DNA of 64,000 nucleotides from the NCBI GenBank assembly GCA_041661275.1, contig JBAZUU010000001.1, positions 35,493-99,492 of the forward strand, read 5' to 3'. This document shows positions 859 through 49,770 of this stretch, piece after piece. Every line of letters starts with the position of its first letter. The stretch's first letter is position 1. Origin of the DNA: Parcubacteria group bacterium. Its GTDB lineage: Bacteria; Patescibacteriota; Minisyncoccia; Moranbacterales; UBA2206. The notes beneath the pieces were generated by a model, which was not told where the DNA came from, made no database searches, and saw nothing but the letters and a program-made list of their open reading frames with translations. Position numbers and translations under genes: made by a program.

Positions 859-1119
859 TATGTGTTATACTACTTGTACTATAAGCATTCTTCTTTTTCC
901 CTTACCCTTCTTGATAACCTTGTCTTTTAATTTGAAAGGCTAAATTTGAAATTTTACCTGCCTACCGGCAGGCAGGAGTCAATTTTAATTGAATTTTTAA
1001 TTCAGATTTAAATCAGTTTATATTTGAATTAAAATTTTAAATTAAAAATTTAAAATTTCTTCTTAAATAATTAATCAATCGCTCATTTTATAATGAGCAA
1101 TCTTGTTACCAATTTTATG

Positions 1120-3904: not shown

Positions 3905-4226
3905 TTTTGTATTTTTAATAAATTAAAATAAGCCGGGTGGGCTACGAAGACAATTTTAGCATAGAATTATTATTTCTTAAAATCTACCTCATCCGCCCCG
4001 ATAAGAATCGGGGCACCTTCTCCTTATAAAGGAGAAAGAAATAATGTAACGTATCCTCCCTCTCCTTTATAAGGAGAGGGATTATGGGTGAGGTCGAGGG
4101 AGTCACTTGCTACTTTATACTTGCTACTTTATACTAAAATCATATGAAAAACCCCGTAAAGAAATTTGCCAAAAAAGTTTGTCTACAGGGTTGATCTAGA
4201 AAAATAACCAAGAAAAATCTATCTTT

Positions 4227-7707: not shown

Positions 7708-7800
7708 AAAATTAGTTTAATTATTACTGCTTTTATTCTAGCATAAAGCCGTCGGATATTTCCAATAGAAGTTGTGTTTTAGTATTATAATAGAGGATTT

Positions 7801-7848
7801 AGAGGTTCGACCTCTAACACGCTCTAACGCTTTAGAGGTCGAACCTCT
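7801..7848. promoter_or_regulatory. pair of mutually inverted 15-bp palindromes (agaggttcgacctct / agaggtcgaacctct) in the divergent pgm-ychF region
   Basis: Each is itself a palindrome, and the second is the reverse complement of the first. Confidence 0.4.
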
Positions 7849-7900
7849 AAAAAGCACCCGTTGATAAAACCATTATACTATACTACTATTCGTACATTGG

Positions 7901-7930
7901 TATATTCGTATTAAATTCGTAATTCGTAAA
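7901..7930 (+). promoter_or_regulatory. TTCGTA-array motif (tatattcgta-N4-aattcgtaattcgta) immediately upstream of ychF
   Basis: Nearly identical 30-mer recurs at 10241-10270 upstream of rpsR. Confidence 0.4.
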
Positions 7931-9156: not shown

Positions 9157-9636
9157 ATGCGATACGAACTGTTTTATCTCATCGGTGCTTCCCGCGAAGC
9201 TGACGCTGAAAAAATCAAAGAAGACATCATGAAACTGGTTACCGAAGCCGGTGGTGTTTTCGAGGAGAAGGAAACCATAGAAAAACGAAGACTAGCCTAC
9301 CAGATCAAGCACGAAACCCATGGGATCTTCATTGCTCAAAGATTCGAGCTGGACACGGAAAAAATTCCGGAGTTGAGTAAAAAAATAAACCTCTACCCCA
9401 ACCTCACTCGATTCATAATCAGCAAGGCTAACGAACTACCGGAACTAAAAACTAAAGAGGAAAGAATAAGTGAATCAATGACCAGACCTGCGCCGGTAAA
9501 AGAAGTGGAAAAGAAAATCGAAACTCCAGCCAAAAAAGAAGAAGTAAAAGAAGACACTAAAAAAGAAGAGTCGAAAGAAAAGCCGGCCAGCGACGATGAT
9601 ATTGATAAAAAATTAGAAGAAATACTAAATATATAA
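9157..9636 (+). CDS. rpsF: 30S ribosomal protein S6 with lysine/acidic C-terminal tail
   Basis: MRYELFYLI... matches S6 N-termini. Start moved to the internal ATG at 9157 (the ORF track starts at 9115). Confidence 0.8.
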   Translation: MRYELFYLIGASREADAEKIKEDIMKLVTEAGGVFEEKETIEKRRLAYQIKHETHGIFIAQRFELDTEKIPELSKKINLYPNLTRFIISKANELPELKTKEERISESMTRPAPVKEVEKKIETPAKKEEVKEDTKKEESKEKPASDDDIDKKLEEILNI

Positions 9637-9707
9637 ATTTTAAGTTTTAAATTTAAAATTTGAAATTGAATTTTAAGTAACTTAATTTTAAATTAAAAAT
9701 TAATCTT

Positions 9708-10184: not shown

Positions 10185-10240
10185 TCTCTACTAATTACTA
10201 ATCAAATACTAATATACCAATCTCTTTTATTTGTAATTAG

Positions 10241-10270
10241 TATATTCGTACAAAATTCGTAATTCGTAGA
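10241..10270 (+). promoter_or_regulatory. TTCGTA-array motif upstream of rpsR
   Basis: tatattcgtacaaaattcgtaattcgtagag differs at 3 of 31 positions from the 7901-7930 element. Confidence 0.4.
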
Positions 10271-11081: not shown

Positions 11082-11527
11082 TGACTACATTTTCTATAAA
11101 TAAAAGAGCCCATTTCGACTATGAGATCCTGGAAAAATACGAGGCCGGATTGGTATTAGCAGGACACGAAGTGAAATCGATAAAAACGGGACACGTGAGC
11201 TTGAAAGAAAGTTTTGTCACAATACACGGGGAGGAGTTATATCTGACCAATGCCCACATACCGCCATATAAGCACGCCGGAAAAATTGCCGATTATGATC
11301 CGACGCGACCGCGAAAATTACTCCTCAAAAAATCTGAAATCAAGCATTTGATAGGACAAGCGCGCACAAAAGGCTTGACACTCGTGCCAATTCGAATGTA
11401 TACTAAAAGACGACTCTTGAAGCTGGAATTCGGCTTGGGTAAGGGAAAAAAGGAATATGATAAGAGAAATAAGATCAAAAAGAGAGAGGACGAAAAAGGG
11501 ATGAGGAGAATGATGAAAAATTTGTAG
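11081..11527 (+). CDS. smpB: SsrA-binding protein SmpB
   Basis: 148 aa with SmpB-like motifs. Sits immediately upstream of tmRNA. Confidence 0.9.
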   Translation: MTTFSINKRAHFDYEILEKYEAGLVLAGHEVKSIKTGHVSLKESFVTIHGEELYLTNAHIPPYKHAGKIADYDPTRPRKLLLKKSEIKHLIGQARTKGLTLVPIRMYTKRRLLKLEFGLGKGKKEYDKRNKIKKREDEKGMRRMMKNL

Positions 11528-11590
11528 TTTTTAATTTGAAATTTGGAAATTAAAAATTGGAAATTAAAAATTCGAGCGAAGCGAGTATCC

Positions 11591-11985
11591 GGGGATGAAC
11601 TGGTTTCGACAGATTGTACATTTAAAATATGCAAGCCGGGCCGAATACCCGTAAAAATATTCAAAATGTTATAAGTGCAAACTTACTAACGAAGGCAAAA
11701 ACTGTATTCGCGCAAGCGTTTACTTCAAATTTTGCTTACGCTACAGCCTAATTAATTTTAGACAGTAGCCATCGAACTGTCGAAGTCTCATAGACAGAAC
11801 TTGGTGTCAAACATGAGAATAGCGCGGATTGCATTTCCTTGGCAATATGCGTAAAATAAACATAGGGATAAGTTGAAGTAATTTTTTCTATTTTTATCTT
11901 TAACTGAAATTACCAAATAGGATAAGCTTGTAGATTATTTTGAATGAATAATTTTGGACGCGAGTTCGATTCTCGCCATCTCCAC
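11591..11985 (+). ncRNA. ssrA: tmRNA (SsrA)
   Basis: 5' GGGGATGAACTGGTTTCGAC. 3' GGACGCGAGTTCGATTCTCGCCATCTCCA is the tRNA-like T-arm/acceptor. Internal tag ORF is ...NFAYATA followed by TAA. Confidence 0.8.
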
Positions 11986-12000
11986 ATAGCGATGCCAATC

Positions 12001-35452: not shown

Positions 35453-35763
35453 TCGGTTCTATCAATTTCCCGGTTCTTTCGGCATATTCTTTTCTTTCCA
35501 AATTCCAGATTTCAGGCAAACACACGGTATTTCGGCCAGCGGCCAGAGATAATTGATTTTTCCCCTTTTTTAGATTGTTAACTCGCATTTTTTGGCTTGT
35601 AAAAGCCATAATTTTGAGCCCCTTAAACACATCTCAATTCAACACCATATTATGCTATCAGATATGGCTTTTCCTGTCAAACCTGCCTGCCGGCAAGGCA
35701 GGGAAGATATCCACAAACAAAAAAAGAGGATCCGAGCCTCTTTTTGGAATATTTTTTCCGATA

Positions 35764-36867: not shown

Positions 36868-37803
36868 TTACTTTTTTTCTGACTTAATTATACCACTTTT
36901 TTTCGTATTTAGAAACACCAGAAAAGCCGTCGGAACCATCAATAAACTGTAAAATTGTCCCAGTGTTAAAAATCCGATCCAGCCGTCAGGATCGCGGAAA
37001 AATTCCGATATTATTCTGGCAATTGCATAACCAGATAGATAGAACGCCAGCATATTATCTTTCGCCCATTTTTTGTTTCGAAGTAGCCATAGTATGACAA
37101 AGAGTATTATCCCTTCTAAAAAGGCTTCGTATAATTGGGATGGGTTACGTAATTCATGCATATAATCATTCGGAAAATACATTCCCCACCACCCTGTTGT
37201 CGCTCGACCATAAAGTTCGCCATTGATAAAATTACCGATGCGGCCAAAAAAATATCCGGCCGGGATAGCTGGCACAATAAAATTAAACCAATTCAGTAGA
37301 TTAATATTATTTTTTTTCGCCCATAGCCAACCGGCAATGACCACACCGATCAATCCACCGTGATAACTCATCCCATATATGCCGATAAATCTATGCGTCA
37401 CCGGATCAAATGGAGAAATGATTTGGATAGGATGCGCTGCATAATATGAAAAATTATAGAAAAAAACTTCTCCCAGCCTCGCACCAACGATCAGTCCAAC
37501 GAATGCGTATAATAAAAAATCCAATAAATACTCTGAATTTTGAATTTTGAATTTTGAATTTTGAAATAATTTTGAATGATTTAATTTCGAAATTGAACAT
37601 TCTGTCATTTGATCTTTATTCGAAATTCGAAATTCGAAATTCGAAATTTCATTCTTCTTTATCCTATATTTCACTAATAGATATACCACTAGAAATGTTA
37701 CCAAATACATAATTGAGTACCACGAAAAAGATATAAACCCGAAAGAAATATTCGGGTTTATGTGTTCGGGTAAATGCTGATAGAATTGTATGTATCTGTC
37801 CAT
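36868..37803 (-). CDS. lgt: prolipoprotein diacylglyceryl transferase, with an in-frame about 45-aa insertion encoded by heptanucleotide tandem repeats
   Basis: GGLIG and FGRIGNFINGELYG are the Lgt signature. The insertion ISNFEFRISNKDQ...FQNSKFKIQNSEY maps onto the repeat arrays. Confidence 0.8.
   Translation of the reverse strand: MDRYIQFYQHLPEHINPNISFGFISFSWYSIMYLVTFLVVYLLVKYRIKKNEISNFEFRISNKDQMTECSISKLNHSKLFQNSKFKIQNSEYLLDFLLYAFVGLIVGARLGEVFFYNFSYYAAHPIQIISPFDPVTHRFIGIYGMSYHGGLIGVVIAGWLWAKKNNINLLNWFNFIVPAIPAGYFFGRIGNFINGELYGRATTGWWGMYFPNDYMHELRNPSQLYEAFLEGIILFVILWLLRNKKWAKDNMLAFYLSGYAIARIISEFFRDPDGWIGFLTLGQFYSLLMVPTAFLVFLNTKKSGIIKSEKK
37545..37577. repeat. tandem heptanucleotide repeat (gaatttt)x4 inside lgt coding sequence
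   Basis: Read directly from the sequence. Confidence 0.85.
37617..37649. repeat. tandem heptanucleotide repeat (attcgaa)x4 inside lgt coding sequence
   Basis: Read directly from the sequence. A partial fifth copy lies at 37584-37598. Confidence 0.85.
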
Positions 37804-38129: not shown

Positions 38130-38862
38130 TAAATATTTCGTTAATTATTAATCCAACCGTCGTCGCATACACATGATGGATGCCAAAACGATCGACTTCT
38201 TTTTGAATATTTTTATTATTATGTTCAACATGAAATTTTTCGCCTTTTTCCGTCCTTTCGTGATCCATAATGTGCCAGTCGCACTTTTCAAAAAAGCCAA
38301 ACGATTGTTTCCTGGCTCTGATATTTTTAAACATCTTTCTCAACTTAATATTATCACAATTTATAATTACCTGCCCATCACGCTTCGTCTTTCTGATAAG
38401 TGTTTTATATTCATCGGCCATATCGTTCATATCGGAAAAATTTTCGAGATATCTTTGTGTTATGTCGGTGATGACAGATATTTTTGGTTTAATTATGGAA
38501 AGCAAGTGTTTCATATCGCCGCGGCTTGACGCGCCCAATTCTAATATCAGAATAAGCGGAAAATCTTTTTGCCATAGGCTTAATATCGACCGATATAGCG
38601 TCGGCAGCCACTTTTTGTAATGGTTATACCCGCTGGGCAGGTCTAAGACCGCCAGAGGCAAACCTATTTCGGTATTAAAACTATTCTGATTAGCCCGAAC
38701 TTTCATACCTTTTTCTTCCAACACATGTTTTATCTCTTCTTTCACAAAAGTCTTATTGGTCGATCCGGCAATGGCGATTATTGTTGGACGATGGACAAAC
38801 AGCACCAGTTTGGTGATGTATTTGAGATAGTATTTTAGTAATGTTTTGAATACTAGTTTCAT
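38119..38862 (-). CDS. Mur ligase family protein (MurF-like central domain only; possibly truncated)
   Basis: IAIAGSTNKTFVKE is the Mur ligase ATP-binding GxxGKT/S-like motif. At only 247 aa it lacks the N- and C-terminal domains. Confidence 0.5.
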   Translation of the reverse strand: MKLVFKTLLKYYLKYITKLVLFVHRPTIIAIAGSTNKTFVKEEIKHVLEEKGMKVRANQNSFNTEIGLPLAVLDLPSGYNHYKKWLPTLYRSILSLWQKDFPLILILELGASSRGDMKHLLSIIKPKISVITDITQRYLENFSDMNDMADEYKTLIRKTKRDGQVIINCDNIKLRKMFKNIRARKQSFGFFEKCDWHIMDHERTEKGEKFHVEHNNKNIQKEVDRFGIHHVYATTVGLIINEIFNGK

Positions 38863-40103
38863 AAAAAAAGTTTTTCTATCCTATCAAATGCTTCGTTTAT
38901 CTCTCTTTTTCTTTTCCCGAAGCTTATACGGATATGGTTTTCACCATTTTCACCAAAAGCCACTCCGGGAACTGTCGCTACTTGCGCTTTCTCCAGTATC
39001 CAAAGAGCAAATTGCCAGGAGTTGCTTATATATAGATCGTCGTTTCTTCTGTCTATAGTGAACTTCTTGTTTGTTATGATTCTCGGAAAAACATAGTAAG
39101 CGCTGGTTGGTTTTACATAGCTGAAAACATTTGAAAGCCTATCGAGACGCTCGCATATTATATCGCGTCTTTTCTTGTATTTTTTATTGAATAATTTCAC
39201 GTCATCTTCCGCCATTTCCAGCGCCCCCATGGCCGCGTACTGCGATATTACCGGCGCGCAAGTGACCAAAGAATCATGGACTTTCAGAATTTCTTTGATG
39301 ATAGATTCGTCACTATGGACATAGCCTATCCGCCAGCCGGTCATAGCATAAGTTTTGGAAAAACTGAAAACACGAATGACCCGTTTTCGCAATTCTGGCA
39401 ATTCTGCTAAACTAAATATTTTTTGGACATCGGATGTCCAAACTTTGTTTTTCTTACCGTCTTGGACATCCGATGTCCCAGCGCTGTCAAAAACCAGATC
39501 TTTATACACTTCGTCAGAAATTAGATATAAATTATGCTTTTCGGCCAGCTTTGCCAGTCCCAATAGTTGCTCCTTGGTATAAATCGTTCCAGTAGGATTA
39601 TTAGGATTGCAATAAAATATCGCTTTGGTTTTTGGCGTGATCGCTTGTTCATATTTTTCCAGTTCAAACGCCCAACCTTTTTCTTCATTAAGCGGCACAA
39701 AAACCGGTACGCATCCGGCCAGGGTTATCACTTCGCGATATGATGTATAGGTCGGCTCCGGAATGATGATCTCATCGCCCGGATTGGTAATGGCAAAAAT
39801 AGTCGCAGTTATGCCTTCAATGGAACCAGCAGTCACAATAATTTCTTTTTGCCAGTCATAGAACATATTCTCCCGAGCAAGATGTATTTCAATCAGTTCT
39901 CGCAGTTCCGGCAGTCCCGGAGAAAGTGAATATCTGGCTACTACGCCGTCTTTAAGCGCCCTTTCTACCCGGCGCTTAATACACGCTGGCGTATCAAAGC
40001 TTGGCACCCCTTGCGCCAAAGATATCACATCCGGAAACTTGGCCGCCCGCAGTTCCATCTGCTTTATGACTGATAATCGAAGGTTTTTAGTGCGTTCAAA
40101 CAT
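38859..40103 (-). CDS. class I/II PLP-dependent aminotransferase
   Basis: SFSKTYAMTGWRIGY holds the PLP-lysine. Length 414 aa. Contains an internal duplicated palindrome at 39423-39478. Confidence 0.8.
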   Translation of the reverse strand: MFERTKNLRLSVIKQMELRAAKFPDVISLAQGVPSFDTPACIKRRVERALKDGVVARYSLSPGLPELRELIEIHLARENMFYDWQKEIIVTAGSIEGITATIFAITNPGDEIIIPEPTYTSYREVITLAGCVPVFVPLNEEKGWAFELEKYEQAITPKTKAIFYCNPNNPTGTIYTKEQLLGLAKLAEKHNLYLISDEVYKDLVFDSAGTSDVQDGKKNKVWTSDVQKIFSLAELPELRKRVIRVFSFSKTYAMTGWRIGYVHSDESIIKEILKVHDSLVTCAPVISQYAAMGALEMAEDDVKLFNKKYKKRRDIICERLDRLSNVFSYVKPTSAYYVFPRIITNKKFTIDRRNDDLYISNSWQFALWILEKAQVATVPGVAFGENGENHIRISFGKRKREINEAFDRIEKLFL

Positions 40104-41881: not shown

Positions 41882-42409
41882 TTATTTGTTTAAAAAGTAA
41901 AAAAATATACTAGCAAAAATGAGTGGCACAATCGGCATCACTACTTTTTGGAACGGAAAATAGGCCCGGCCGCCATTTTTTTTCTTCAAATATTCATAAT
42001 ATTCGGCGCCTGAAAAAAACAGAATGCATCCGATGGCAATTCCCAAAAGCATCTTGTCTATTCCCCACATTTTATTCAGTTCCTTTCCTACTATTGGATA
42101 GCCTTTTATTTTTATAAAAAACAAAGGAACAATAATCATTAAAAAATACACGATAATCGTCACTGCTTTCATTTGAAAAAATTTGATATTTTTTCTAGAA
42201 AACCAATCTAGTGTCCAAGAAATCAAAGAAACAGTCAGCCCTCCGACCCATAGTCCGATGATCACATCGTCTACGCCAAATTCTTCGGCCAGTCCCACTC
42301 CGGCTCCGACGGCAATCGTGCATATCGGGCAAACAGCCAGGGCCTTAGGCGCGACACAAAAAACTCCCGTTAAAATAAAAGATGTTAACGTTATTATAAT
42401 CCTCCTCAT
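41882..42409 (-). CDS. membrane protein (hypothetical); start probably at 42409, not 42442
   Basis: The tracked N-terminus is encoded by TTCGTA/TTCGCA repeats. The internal ATG gives MRRIIITL... followed by TM segments. Confidence 0.45.
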   Translation of the reverse strand: MRRIIITLTSFILTGVFCVAPKALAVCPICTIAVGAGVGLAEEFGVDDVIIGLWVGGLTVSLISWTLDWFSRKNIKFFQMKAVTIIVYFLMIIVPLFFIKIKGYPIVGKELNKMWGIDKMLLGIAIGCILFFSGAEYYEYLKKKNGGRAYFPFQKVVMPIVPLIFASIFFYFLNK

Positions 42410-42442
42410 TCGTAGATTCGCATGCAATTCGTAGATTCGCAT
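42407..42442. promoter_or_regulatory. tandem attcgtagattcgcat x2 (TTCGTA-array motif)
   Basis: Read directly from the sequence. Related arrays at 42941-42980. Confidence 0.4.
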
Positions 42443-42807: not shown

Positions 42808-42977
42808 AAAATGTTTTGGTTAATAATTCTACTTAATATTAGCAACAAAAACATTTTTAGCCAAGCAAACGGTATTAAGGATGTAAAAACAGCCCCGAGC
42901 TTGCGCCTAGGGCCATTTTTTATCTAGAAGATACTCTTTTATTCGTATGTGCGCGTTCGTAGTGCGCTATTCGCATA

Positions 42978-43307
42978 CTAGTATCTGTCTCTTCGTCCGC
43001 CTCCGAAACCACCTCTGTCTCCACCTCGATTGAAACCACCAGATCTCTGGGGTCGATCGCCTTGGGGACGAGCTTCGTTGACAGTCAGAGTTCTACCTTC
43101 GAATTCCTGTCCGTTGAACATTTCAACAGCTTTTTTGGCTTCCTCGTCAGTCGCCATTTCTACGAAGCCGAAGCCTCGAGAACGTCCGGACATTTTGTCC
43201 ATGATGATGGTAGCAGAGACAACTTGTCCAGCTCCAGCGAATAGAGAACCCAAGGAATCCTGGGTAGTATTGTAGGAAAGTCCTCCTACATACAACTTTT
43301 GACTCAT
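42978..43307 (-). CDS. glycine-rich RNA-binding protein (RRM)
   Basis: RNP2 LYVGGL, RNP1 RGFGFVEM, RGG-rich tail. Confidence 0.8.
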   Translation of the reverse strand: MSQKLYVGGLSYNTTQDSLGSLFAGAGQVVSATIIMDKMSGRSRGFGFVEMATDEEAKKAVEMFNGQEFEGRTLTVNEARPQGDRPQRSGGFNRGGDRGGFGGGRRDRY

Positions 43308-43449
43308 TGATTTTCTTATATGAATTTACTTTGTAAGGTGACCTTCTCTCTTGTTTACTCTGTTGCGGAATTTAACCGCTCACTTAGCTTACACTAACTT
43401 CATATAAGACTAAAAACGAGAAACGAATGCGAGAAAACTTACATTAATC

Positions 43450-43480
43450 CTAGTATACACTTTTGAGCCAAAATGTCAAC
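43450..43480 (-). promoter_or_regulatory. strong promoter (TTGACA-16-TGtTATACT) for the RRM gene, leaving an about 140-nt 5' UTR
   Basis: Read from the minus strand. Confidence 0.45.
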
Positions 43481-43514
43481 CCAAACAGCATAAATCCCCT
43501 GATATTGATTAACT

Positions 43515-43570
43515 AAAGCATTTATCCACAGTTTCCGATATTTGCCGGTTGACAGAAATCGGCTGCTCTG
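43515..43570 (+). promoter_or_regulatory. TTATCCACAG box plus consensus promoter TTGACA-17-TATACT
   Basis: Box at 43515-43524, -35 at 43542-43547, -10 at 43565-43570. Confidence 0.5.
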
Positions 43571-43589
43571 CTATACTGCCGGAGTAAGA

Positions 43590-43655
43590 TAAGATTATGA
43601 AAACAGCGAAACAAACATTCAAGCTAGTCTTTGGGATGTTGATTACCGTCATTGG
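43590..43655 (+). CDS. 21-aa hydrophobic peptide MKTAKQTFKLVFGMLITVIGR (type I toxin-like / membrane micropeptide candidate)
   Basis: GGAG sits 10 nt upstream of the ATG. A consensus promoter lies 20 nt upstream. A terminator hairpin follows at 43706-43732. Confidence 0.4.
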
Positions 43656-44774
43656 ACGATAAATTTTCGCTGGGAACATAGCATAAAAAAAATAGACAAA
43701 CGGATCCCGGCGAAAAGCGGGGTTTTTATTTTTCAAAGTTCCTTACAACACAAATTCTATTAGCCGGAGAGTGCGTAAAATTTAATTGTGCATTGTCCGG
43801 CAAACGGAATGATTTCCTTGAAAGAAAGATTCTTGAAAACTAATTTGCTTGAATTTTTGCCGACTCACTCGTTTAAATATGGCAGTGATGAATCAGGCTC
43901 TCCTAAAAGGAGAAAAAATAATTTTCAACAAACCGGTTTTCAATAAATTAATCAATCAAGGAAATCTTCTAGATGCCAATCTGCAAGAGGGGTAAGTCAT
44001 CCTACAACCGAAACGGATAGGGGGGAACATGAATCAGCCAAAGAAAGTGACCGAGAAAAGCTTGACCGGAAATAAAGGAAATCTCCTGAAATTTCCCGTT
44101 CCGATAGATGAACGGGAACCTGTCAAGCCACCGAGCTCTCATGAAATCAAGAGGGCTTTCTCTGAACTTTTTATGGCAAAAGCCGTCCAGACGACTTAAC
44201 TCAGTCCCATAAACTCCAAAAGAGTATGGGCATATCAACACAAGGGAGAGGTGCAATCCGCTTCTCCCTTCTCTCAAAAAATTTATTACTTTTTATATAA
44301 CCACCACACAAAAATGAATTTTATATTTCTCACAAATAGCATAATTATGATTATTAACCGACCAGCGTCGAGTTGATTTTGGTTTCCGAAAACTAATTAG
44401 GATCAACCCGACGCCAGTCGGTTTTTTTATTGATTAATAACAACATTATCCTCCTCTCCCTTCGGGAGAGGATGTCAGCCTAAATTTTTCTTAAAATTTT
44501 GGCTGACAGGAGAGGGAAAAGGAGATCTATCATGAAAAAACCGGAAGAAGAACAATGCAAGCTGTCAACTGAAAGCCAAAAGAGAATGCGAAGAATCGCT
44601 CAAAAAGAAGGCAAAAAAAGTGCGTGCGAACTTTGCATCCACAGGGAGAAATGTAAAAAATAAACCCCTAACTTTTTCCTAACATGGAATGAGTTGCAAG
44701 CCGAAAAGTAAAACATACTTTTTGGCACCAGCCGAGCTTACCCCCTTACAGCCCGGCCTTTTTATTGCACCTTA

Positions 44775-44803
44775 TTGACAAGATAAACTACATCTGCTAA
44801 ATT
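44775..44803 (+). promoter_or_regulatory. promoter TTGACA-17-TAAATT
   Basis: Read directly from the sequence. Confidence 0.4.
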
Positions 44804-44815
44804 AAGGGTACTGTT

Positions 44816-44890
44816 ATGAATCAAATTATAAACAACCTACTACTTCTATTGCTTAGCCCGCACGCGGTGGTTGTTTCGTTTCGTTCATAA
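44816..44890 (+). CDS. 24-aa hydrophobic peptide MNQIINNLLLLLLSPHAVVVSFRS (second micropeptide module)
   Basis: The promoter is directly upstream. A terminator (ccgcc-gtgtg-ggcgg plus T7) follows at 44918-44940. Confidence 0.35.
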   Translation: MNQIINNLLLLLLSPHAVVVSFRS

Positions 44891-45297
44891 GCAGTAGTTA
44901 AAACGAAGAAAAACATTCCGCCGTGTGGGCGGTTTTTTTATTTGCGGCTCCCTACATTATTCCCTTCTCCCTTTTAGGGAGAAGGTGGCTCGAGTCCCGC
45001 AATAGCGGACGAGAGACGGATGAGGGAAAACCATGGAATAGTGAGTTTATAAATTAAATTTTAATTTTTAAACTGGCTGTTTCAGAGGGTTCTTTCAACA
45101 ACTAACAGGAGAAAGAGTTATGATTTTTCTTAACGACATACCTCAAATAATCGAAGATTACGAAGCGGTAAGAAAGATTTACCGCAAAAGAGCAAAAAAA
45201 GAGCGGCTTCATCGATTTATCGTAAGATGCCGCATGTTTATTACTCGTTTTCCTTGGATTCACATTTAATTTCAAAGGTCAAAGAAAGGAAGGTACT

Positions 45298-45486
45298 ATG
45301 GACGCGACAGTTCTTTTAACGCAAGGCCTTAGACCACCGAAAGCAAGGGTTAAAGTCGATGAAAATCCCCCCTGCTGCAATTGTGGGGATAAAACACGCA
45401 GGGTCAACGATGCCCTGATCTGGTGTGAATCGTGCAACACAAAAATGAACCCGGCGGGTGAAGAAATAGAGGGATTTGTTTTTTAA
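45298..45486 (+). CDS. small zinc-ribbon protein (CCNCG...CESC)
   Basis: 62 aa. AGGAAGG RBS. A terminator hairpin follows. Confidence 0.4.
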   Translation: MDATVLLTQGLRPPKARVKVDENPPCCNCGDKTRRVNDALIWCESCNTKMNPAGEEIEGFVF

Positions 45487-45675
45487 ACAATACTGCAAAT
45501 CTTTCAAGAGGCGGCTGGATATCCACATCTCCAGACCGCCTTCTTTTTATCCCCCACTATTGATTTATCTGAAAGATTTGCTATAATCATCTTGTTATCT
45601 ATGTATAGTTCCGTAAGGAACTATTTTTCAGCCAGAGGCTGATCCGCCTATGGCGGAAAAAATTGAATATTACAA

Positions 45676-45750
45676 TCCGGCGTAGCTCAATGGTAGAGCA
45701 GTTGACTGTTAATCAATTGGTTGTAGGTTCGAGTCCTACCGCCGGAGCCA
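45676..45750 (+). tRNA. tRNA-Asn (anticodon GTT), CCA encoded
   Basis: Acceptor stem tccggcg/cgccgga. D-arm agctcaatggtagagc. Anticodon loop ctGTTaa. T-arm gtagg-ttcgagt-cctac. Confidence 0.85.
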
Positions 45751-49165: not shown

Positions 49166-49770
49166 AATTATTCGCTAAGTTTTCCCCTAAATCGTCGATT
49201 GAAGGTTCACCCATATAGGTGATTTTGTAGAGTTTAAAAAGATTATTGGCCCGCGAGCTCGCTTCCTCATCGGAAAGATGCACGCCGTAGCGTTTTTCAT
49301 AGAGTCTCTTAAATTCTTCAATGGCTTCTTGAGGTAACATAAAAAGGCTGGCCCAAACGGGACTAGCCTTTATATTTCTTCTCAAGTTCTAATCAGTTCA
49401 ATGCGAGGCACCTTAGTTTGCGTTGGGAAACAAAAAAACGAGACTACAACTTATGCCATCAAAACCCGACCGACAATTCGGTCAAATGTTTTTGATAACA
49501 GAAGTCATAGCCCCGTCTCGTTTAGTTCCGAACAATCGGAACGCCGTCAGGCAAACTTTCTGGATTTGTGATTTTATTTTAGCAAATCATGTCATGCTGT
49601 CAACTCTCTCTCTGTCATATGCCTCGATTTTGGAAAATAAAGGGCTTGTTGATGGGAAAGCTGAAAGGATAAAGGCTTTAATTGAGAAATAAAAAAAACG
49701 GCTGCGAGATATGCCGTAAGGCAAATTTCTCGCAACCGTCTGTTTCTTGAATAGAGGCTAGTGATTCTTC

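Follow-up and report, generated by a model that had tools for sequence, protein, structure and literature searches.

Palindromic repeat DNA lying in frame inside protein-coding genes is known mainly from Rickettsia, where the Rickettsia palindromic elements (RPEs; Ogata et al. 2000) form, by the account in PMC10969869, dispersed multi-copy families with 44 insertions in R. conorii. Other small palindromic repeats listed in that paper are SPRITE, REP/BIME and intragenic ERIC/BOX. Phase variation by heptanucleotide tandem arrays in coding regions is known from neuO of E. coli K1 (poly-psi, PMC9659370) and from the IgA protease of H. influenzae (PMC8178019). Here we describe a palindromic element with heptanucleotide arms inside lgt, the gene for prolipoprotein diacylglyceryl transferase, of a Parcubacteria group bacterium. 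It lies in a stretch of 64,000 nucleotides (nt), hereafter the window, that covers positions 35,493 to 99,492 of contig JBAZUU010000001.1 (assembly GCA_041661275.1), a 299,612-bp contig of a metagenome-assembled genome (MAG).

The lgt element is like the RPEs, as that source outlines them, in being a palindrome of ~100-150 bp that sits in frame in a housekeeping gene, at a site compatible with the protein fold, and that is conserved as DNA. On the other hand, RPEs are multi-copy, whereas the lgt element was found once in the 64 kb and once in an unrelated GC-rich genome (locus L158); perfect heptamer microsatellites form its arms, a feature not known from RPEs; and, unlike RPEs, it is orthologous (same site) in several species, its hosts being Parcubacteria of the candidate phyla radiation (CPR). 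With neuO and the IgA protease gene it has in common a 7-nt tandem repeat in a coding region, in frame only at certain unit numbers and giving a 7-residue peptide repeat for every three units. Those systems, however, are single direct arrays whose length is documented to vary and which lie in accessory or surface-related genes, while lgt is a housekeeping gene holding two short inverted arrays in which no such variation was observed; arrays of the former type are, moreover, often much longer. Like SPRITE, REP/BIME and ERIC/BOX repeats, by their description, the element is hairpin repeat DNA of a kind typical of spacers and also found inside genes. The inserts of three relatives (L155, L156 and L069) have a GC-rich stem with A/T-rich arms, like a bidirectional terminator, but the copy in the window differs from SPRITE or terminator repeats in having neither GC-rich core nor immediate U-tract and in being translated as part of an open reading frame (ORF). 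Finally, templated mutation takes place at imperfect inverted repeats and at short tandem repeats (quasi-palindrome template switching and slippage), which would explain the homogenised arms and the arm-to-arm similarity of the element; this is, however, a mutational mechanism and not an element family, and it leaves conservation between species unexplained.

With moderate confidence, we read the lgt element as an RPE-like palindromic repeat with heptamer arms that a permissive, disordered loop would tolerate. Units without stop codons and an overall length divisible by three would keep it open, slippage would homogenise its arms, and it would be preserved or renewed as DNA. Particular to this case are the perfect heptamer microsatellite arms and the fact that the DNA of the element is better conserved than its host gene. 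No description of such in-frame palindromic elements in CPR bacteria was found in the searchable literature, and with this case the notion of selfish or structural DNA within proteins would reach a very different, genome-reduced lineage.

Anatomy of the element and its place in Lgt

The features of the locus, on which the following comparisons are based, are listed in the order of transcription of lgt.

36868..37803, minus strand: lgt, the host gene of the element (ORF list, 311 residues)
37657..37722, minus strand: region coding for the first transmembrane helix (TM1), 5' of the insert (AlphaFold helix H28-49, which aligns to E. coli residues 5-44)
37535..37649: whole ~115-nt quasi-palindrome with outer heptamer-array arms, inner stem and apex (inverted repeat and folds)
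37618..37648, minus strand: 5' arm, (ATTTCGA)x4.4 in mRNA sense, ATTCGAA on the plus strand (Tandem Repeats Finder, 100% matches)
37606..37608, minus strand: Met66 codon, between the arms, its ATG overlapping a TGA (ATGA)
37583..37594: apex, a perfect 12-nt palindrome AATTTCGAAATT encoding ISKL in mid-insert (sequence and folds; conserved in L144)
37534..37565, minus strand: 3' arm, (AAAATTC)x4.6 in mRNA sense, TGAATTT on the plus strand (Tandem Repeats Finder, 100% matches)
37456..37557, minus strand: region coding for the second transmembrane helix (TM2), whose cytoplasmic end is encoded by the 3' arm (AlphaFold helix H83-116)

On the plus strand the units of the two arrays, GAATTTT and GAAATTC, are reverse complements at 6 of 7 positions, and the arrays are therefore the two arms of one quasi-palindrome; a repeat search returned an inverted repeat with 44-nt arms (37536-37579 / 37605-37648). 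Only 0.03-0.05 occurrences of either array's 21-mer (at most 3 mismatches) are expected in shuffles of the window, none of which reached the observed counts. The 3' arm encodes QNSKFKIQNS and directly adjoins the start of TM2. The 5' arm encodes EISNFEFRISN, and its unit differs from the complement of the 3' unit in having CGA for TGA; an exact complement, (GAATTTT)n, would, as read from the sequence, bring this TGA into frame as a stop every 21 nt.

A preliminary description of this DNA had reported both arrays, their location inside the Lgt ORF, the encoded peptides (EISNFEFRISN... and ...QNSKFKIQNSEY) and the status of the segment as an insertion relative to canonical Lgt. All of this agrees with our results, the insertion being borne out by alignment to E. 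coli Lgt and by the loops of homologs, and the ATTCGAA array, then placed at 37617-37649, being located by Tandem Repeats Finder at 37618-37648. The GAATTTT array is likewise present, but about 10 nt from the interval given for it (37545-37577 instead of 37534-37565). Two points require revision: the arrays had been taken as separate microsatellites, whereas they are inverted complements forming one hairpin that is conserved at the DNA level; and the insertion, put at about 45 residues, adds ~31-37, that is, ~34 relative to E. coli Lgt and ~31 relative to the minimal, 15-residue loops of Parcubacteria.

The 311-residue ORF, whose start codon overlaps the stop codon of the DUF5654 gene upstream, matches the Pfam family LGT (PF01790, E=2.5e-57, above the curated cut-off) and the E. 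coli Lgt structure 5azb (E=9.4e-34), its WY, SYHGG and GRIGNFINGELYGR segments aligning to the catalytic motifs of the latter. Equivalents of E. coli Y26, H103, R143 and E151, the catalytic roles of which have been described (PMC4728403), are present and are invariant or nearly so in an alignment of 66 sequences. The AlphaFold model, built from 66 homologs (pLDDT 88.4, pTM 0.85), has transmembrane helices as expected for the seven-helix fold, and the sole extended low-confidence coil in this otherwise confident model is formed by residues 56-82 (pLDDT about 52). Residues 5-44 and 59-170 of E. coli Lgt align to residues 7-46 and 95-213 of the query, with 48 residues between the aligned blocks in the query as against 14 (residues 45-58) in E. 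coli. The E. coli structure has its N-terminal strand and arm-1 on the periplasmic side and a positively charged cytoplasmic face (PMC4728403); by topology, the insert between TM1 and TM2 therefore belongs to the first cytoplasmic loop, where the model predicts it to be disordered. As for the designation of lgt as essential in the preliminary description, it is true of Proteobacteria (PMC13251419), and deletion is lethal in most Gram-negatives (PMC4728403), but a pneumococcal deletion strain is viable (PMC6549034) and the label is not established for the present organism.

The loop is highly variable among homologs. Across 120 of them, the segment from the TM1 motif to GARLG spans 40-93 residues and the loop itself 15 to more than 60; minimal loops read KKKENNFFFDISKLE, and long loops hold words that translate repeat DNA (NSKFKIQNS, IFNFQFSIFN, PNSKFQIPN, NNPPAGG, LDSRLRGND and HPRVCGDP). 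Relatives that stand close together in a tree of the Lgt core differ wholly in this loop: the nearest neighbour of the window's protein, P0002 (L069), has two GC-rich mini-palindromes there instead, and many orthologs are without the two-arm element. Such tolerance should be useful for engineering and for reading Lgt alignments. It also carries a warning for annotation, as NSKFKIQNS, IFNFQF, NPPAGG and LDSRLRGND in CPR proteins are translated repeat DNA.

A separate palindrome lies in the 5' part of lgt (37733-37761, minus strand); its 11-bp stem, ATAAACCCGAA/TTCGGGTTTAT, is followed by a T-run, codes for the arm-1 peptide NPNISFGF and has a terminator-like score inside the gene.

Conservation of the element as DNA

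The same two-arm element, in frame in all cases, is carried by four Parcubacteria Lgt orthologs from other samples (L144, L154, L155 and L156), which are only 53-66% identical at the protein level; the nucleotide repeats of the preliminary description are thus found in orthologs as well, together with the two-arm architecture. The 3' arm is (AAAATTC)n in all five lineages, and the same unit occurs in L158. The 5' arms are as follows.

Window: (ATTTCGA)4.4 (codon layout)
L155: (AATTTTC)4
L156: (AATTTTC)3
L154: (AATTTCC)4
L144: degenerate; only the unit in frame has AGA, and a TGA is kept out of frame, where it does no harm

The TGA of the perfect complement has hence been removed differently by lineage, to CGA, TCA or CCA. 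A 7-nt unit visits all three frames per 21 nt, and an arm would be tolerated only if stop-free in every one of them: (AAAATTC)n is stop-free, its complement (GAATTTT)n has TGA, and the 5' arm of each lineage would then be a TGA-free variant, the total length of the element being held at a multiple of three. Avoidance of stop codons would in this way explain the asymmetry of the arms and would provide a simple rule for DNA inside genes, namely that a 7-nt unit has to be stop-free in all three frames. Furthermore, the arrays are perfect in four of the five lineages despite a third-position identity of only 0.37-0.57 in the rest of lgt, and therefore are probably homogenised continually, most simply by replication slippage, which would keep each arm internally uniform. 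The microsatellite process suspected in the preliminary description is in line with this, since perfect arrays imply ongoing homogenisation of the microsatellite type.

Comparison of the window with L144 indicates where conservation lies. Over the 39 codons of the insert, identity at codon positions 1/2/3 amounts to 0.82/0.90/0.90, against 0.71/0.84/0.45 in the rest of lgt; third positions are identical at 35 of 39 sites in the former and 118 of 263 in the latter (p=5e-8), and conserved residues use the same codon in 24 of 27 cases as against 92 of 174 (p=2e-4). The non-repetitive centre of the insert gives 0.74/0.89/0.95, the reverse of a coding signature. Codon bias was ruled out as the cause by a composition-matched control on conserved residues of six syntenic genes, in which 15.6 of 28 identical codons are expected and 24 were observed (P=0.0004). 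In three sequence pairs, the excess does not extend beyond the insert and falls off abruptly at either side; a recent recombination tract was ruled out by this collapse of identity at both edges. Conservation of synonymous sites in the insert requires nucleic-acid function or recent spread. To judge from these alignments, constraint or recent common origin acts on the DNA rather than on the peptide; the latter would be a by-product, and preservation would operate on the nucleic acid, either through a structure or binding function or through common origin by spread or recombination.

The same figures bear on an adaptation at the protein level, according to which the heptad peptide (ISNFEFR / KFKIQNS) would be selected as a cytoplasmic extension, such as an amphipathic helix or a motif for interactions. 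The frame is always open, peptide words recur in distant orthologs, the 3'-arm peptide extends the TM2 helix in the model, and the repeat-encoded heptads of neuO modulate activity. However, the codon-position pattern is opposite, first positions of the centre being less conserved than third positions; the segment is predicted to be disordered; and loop sequences are unrelated even between close relatives, at lengths of 15 to more than 60 residues. We regard selection of the peptide as very improbable.

A strong asymmetry between strands was found in the folding of the element. As RNA, the plus strand, which is antisense to lgt, reaches -41.1 kcal/mol (z=-6.46) and the mRNA strand -23.6 kcal/mol (z=-0.70), or -22.3 kcal/mol in the comparison of loci given below; DNA energy parameters gave the same asymmetry (plus strand -21.5, z=-2.7; minus strand -13.7, z=+0.6). 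The seventh unit position forms a G.U pair on the plus strand and a C.A mismatch on the mRNA strand. In a sliding scan of the 64 kb, the element is the fourth strongest GC-adjusted local fold and, together with an aminotransferase insert described below, is among the very few strong folds inside genes. The antisense strand folds better than the mRNA strand in every other case too (antisense/sense, in kcal/mol: L144, -44.2/-30.3; L154, -26.0/-11.3; L155, -45.7/-32.4; L156, -29.2/-22.7; L158, -47.1/-38.1).

This asymmetry speaks for a functional nucleic-acid element whose coding is incidental, be it a hairpin of antisense RNA or of single-stranded plus-strand DNA, a terminator or attenuator within the gene, or a row of 7-bp binding sites. 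Nucleotide conservation that exceeds that of the host gene and is limited to the element points the same way, as do the related modules with AT-rich arms and a GC-rich hairpin at intergenic, terminator-like positions. In the antisense fold, the window/L144 differences comprise 5 that are wobble-compatible and 5 that break pairs, against 1 compatible and 5-7 breaking in the sense fold. Nevertheless, no compensatory pair was found among the 16 differences and half of the paired-site changes break pairs; this is a mild strand bias, not covariation, and a selected RNA structure is not claimed. Rfam gave no family at the lgt element, where it returned sub-threshold generic miRNA-hairpin matches only (the matches in the window, the transfer-messenger RNA (tmRNA) and one tRNA, are both away from it), and a promoter/terminator consensus scan found no terminator at the hairpin and no convincing promoter or terminator associated with it. 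The window copy lacks the GC-rich core and the immediate U-tract of an intrinsic terminator, GC-rich cores being present in the inserts of L155, L156 and L069. Moreover, there are no plus-strand genes nearby to serve, the asymmetry may be a by-product of TGA removal from the coding strand, and the many orthologs without the element mean that any function is dispensable. We consider a functional element of this kind rather unlikely.

Unit number and reading frame

Perfect repeats and palindromes can be mishandled by short-read assemblers, and the preliminary description had left room for an assembly artefact. An independent dataset is provided by the Logan assembly of SRR6484324, in which contigs L151 and L153 cover the arrays: both are present at the same positions, with about four units of each (L151 ends in four complete units and L153 begins with about 3.9). 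The contigs end inside the arrays. Breaks at 31-32-nt perfect repeats are expected if the assembler works with k=31, as we assume, and the contigs therefore confirm the presence of the arrays and are silent on variation. In addition, a MEGAHIT-style contig (k141) spans the locus in frame, and the four orthologs from other samples have the same in-frame architecture. We reject an assembly or sequencing artefact, the probability of which is negligible for practical purposes. As a side observation, a repeat of k-mer length fragments short-k assemblies at lgt and truncates gene calls there (L151/L153).

A change of one 7-nt unit would shift the frame, as had been pointed out: in simulations of +/-1 or +/-2 units in the 5' array, translation stops 0-5 codons after it, and with -1 or +2 units it ends at the TGA that overlaps the ATG of Met66. 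Slippage by one unit would cut Lgt short directly behind TM1, and the locus is therefore a potential mutational hot spot. On a 296,493-bp contig of a second MAG from this organism, Lgt is annotated from Met66 (MFA6485464.1, P0001, 246 residues; NCBI and JGI), the protein of the window's contig being MFA6047268.1 (311 residues; NCBI and ENA); the shorter annotation hints that the DNA upstream of Met66 differs in the second MAG. Look-ups by the genes on either side of lgt gave the window's contig and the Logan fragments only, an exact look-up of the 246-residue product gave no DNA, and neither did scans of genomes and metagenomes. A protein of another relative, P0011, also begins at the equivalent internal Met.

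These features might suggest a contingency locus, in which slipped-strand mispairing would switch lgt between a full-length (ON) and a truncated or split (OFF) state and render lipoprotein maturation phase-variable. The unit is not a multiple of three and lies inside the ORF, the perfect arrays imply active slippage, both alternative frames stop shortly after the 5' array with one stop overlapping the Met66 ATG, the second MAG is annotated exactly from Met66, and neuO and the IgA protease provide precedents. The arrays have, however, about 4.5 units each, which is short for a contingency tract; a switch by direct repeats needs neither a second, inverted array nor a conserved centre; and lgt is a housekeeping gene, all five lineages of which are in frame. 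A product started at Met66 would be without the N-terminal strand and the TM1 residues that are needed in E. coli (PMC4728403). We found no assembly that differs in unit number; of 17 predicted OFF products (8 frameshift, 9 one-step-stop), not one occurs in a 15-billion-protein collection by exact look-up, and no protein of the representative set shares words with the N-terminal 52 residues of Lgt. Phase variation, as raised in the preliminary description, is not supported so far; we consider it unlikely and do not think that there is a programmed switch at lgt. If unit-number variation were found in reads, lgt would be the first candidate phase-variable lipoprotein-maturation gene.

A more far-reaching proposal sees a conserved, functional, strand-specific hairpin module in the lgt of Parcubacteria, which would act either as a landing pad or recombination site for palindromic cassettes exchanged between co-occurring CPR bacteria, or as a programmable switch that truncates or splits Lgt and thereby tunes lipoprotein maturation in an episymbiont. 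We hold this to be improbable.

Related palindromic DNA outside lgt

The window contains related DNA in another gene and in spacers.

39425..39478, minus strand: aminotransferase insertion, two inverted copies of GGACATC(G/C)GATGTCC (39425-39439 and 39464-39478)
948..1060, plus strand: intergenic relative with a GC-rich mini-hairpin, CCTGCCTACCGGCAGGCAGG, between AT-rich, heptamer-like arms (fold z=-4.46)

The insertion in the aminotransferase gene (38859-40103, minus strand) is a clean, in-frame 54 nt (18 residues), in which the two palindrome copies, present exactly twice against 0.05 expected, flank native-looking DGKK codons. The syntenic ortholog of L144, otherwise 85% identical, lacks this insertion, and the independent assembly L151 has it; palindromic DNA has therefore recently been inserted in frame in this lineage. 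In the spacers 983-1069, 9634-9700 and 11518-11573 there are AT-rich period-7 arrays with hairpin potential, the last of them directly upstream of the tmRNA gene (11591-11987) and crossed by a spurious ORF that reads IFNFQF...KFQI. Period 7 is also the commonest period in the Tandem Repeats Finder output (15 of 64 rows).

Shared motifs connect spacers and Lgt loops. A 15-mer, CTACCGGCAGGCAGG, which forms a GC-rich hairpin, occurs in a window spacer (962-976) and is identical to the centre of the lgt insert at L156:1691-1705 and L157:635-649. The GC-rich mini-palindrome AATCCGCCAGCTGGCGGA (peptide NPPAGG) lies in the Lgt loop of two distant lineages (L069:1685-1698 and L155:327-340) and, in a terminator-like position, directly after stop codons in unrelated phage contigs (viral loci L177-L184). 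As a sign of mobility it carries little weight, its occurrence in phage contigs being roughly at the frequency that a short palindrome might reach. The loop inserts thus consist of the same terminator-like palindromic DNA as the spacers.

A word search with the insert peptide gave one match, P0122, a 55-residue 'hypothetical protein', which led to L158; an exhaustive HMMER search with the same peptide returned only an unrelated repeat protein, low complexity blunting such a search. At L158:556-670, in the non-coding efp-epmA spacer of a GC-rich genome, (ATTTCGA)x4 and (AATTCAA)x3 surround a different centre, with the same orientation to transcription and the same strand asymmetry as in lgt, and GC-rich flanks extend the stem. 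The heptamer arms are hence peculiar neither to lgt nor to Parcubacteria. Among 2.9 million viral contigs, (ATTTCGA)4 and two-arm elements were never found and (AAAATTC)4 occurs in 18, with a partial partner in one only; by these counts, the 3' unit is a recurrent microsatellite and the palindrome is rare.

On the reading that we favour, terminator-like, palindromic period-7 spacer DNA would have repeatedly colonised, or expanded in, the permissive Lgt loop of Parcubacteria. The element does not resemble a miniature inverted-repeat transposable element (MITE): it is palindromic over its whole length, unlike a MITE with only short terminal inverted repeats, no common direct duplication was found at the junctions of the window, L144, L154-L156 and L158, and no transposase lies near it in the window. 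Several observations weigh against an RPE-like repeat that is merely tolerated, or selfish. A neutral or selfish element inherited vertically should diverge like synonymous sites, and the lgt insert has not; all five lineages have it at the same site and in the same frame, for which repeated independent insertion would need site specificity; the exact element is single-copy in the 64-kb window; and terminal inverted repeats flanked by target-site duplications were not seen. In addition, the non-coding arm of L158 has the TGA-removing C in the absence of any reading-frame constraint, and stop avoidance may therefore not fully explain the asymmetry of the arms.

Other repeats and folds of the window are minor observations. 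An identical 26-nt motif, TATTCGTA-N4-ATTCGTAATTCGTA, stands just upstream of two start codons (7903-7928 and 10243-10268, plus strand), with 0 expected by chance, and a diverged copy in inverted orientation lies at 10189-10214; the motif may represent an operator or a leader. ATTCGTA/ATTCGCA words are also found at 42408-42442 and 42940-42975. About 2.4 kb without an ORF of at least 100 residues (43300-45676), which end at tRNA-Asn, have strong local folds at 44356-44475 and 44866-45105 and gave no Rfam family at gathering score. Very strong intergenic hairpins lie at 3976-4095, 7798-7851 and 49426-49545, and include perfect 20-nt inverted repeats, CCTTCTCCTTATAAAGGAGA... and TTTAGAGGTTCGACCTCTAA, the latter as two adjacent palindromes. 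Finally, gene orientation switches at ~13.3 kb (convergent) and ~60.3 kb (divergent); GC skew changes sign near 60 kb, which could mark a replication origin.

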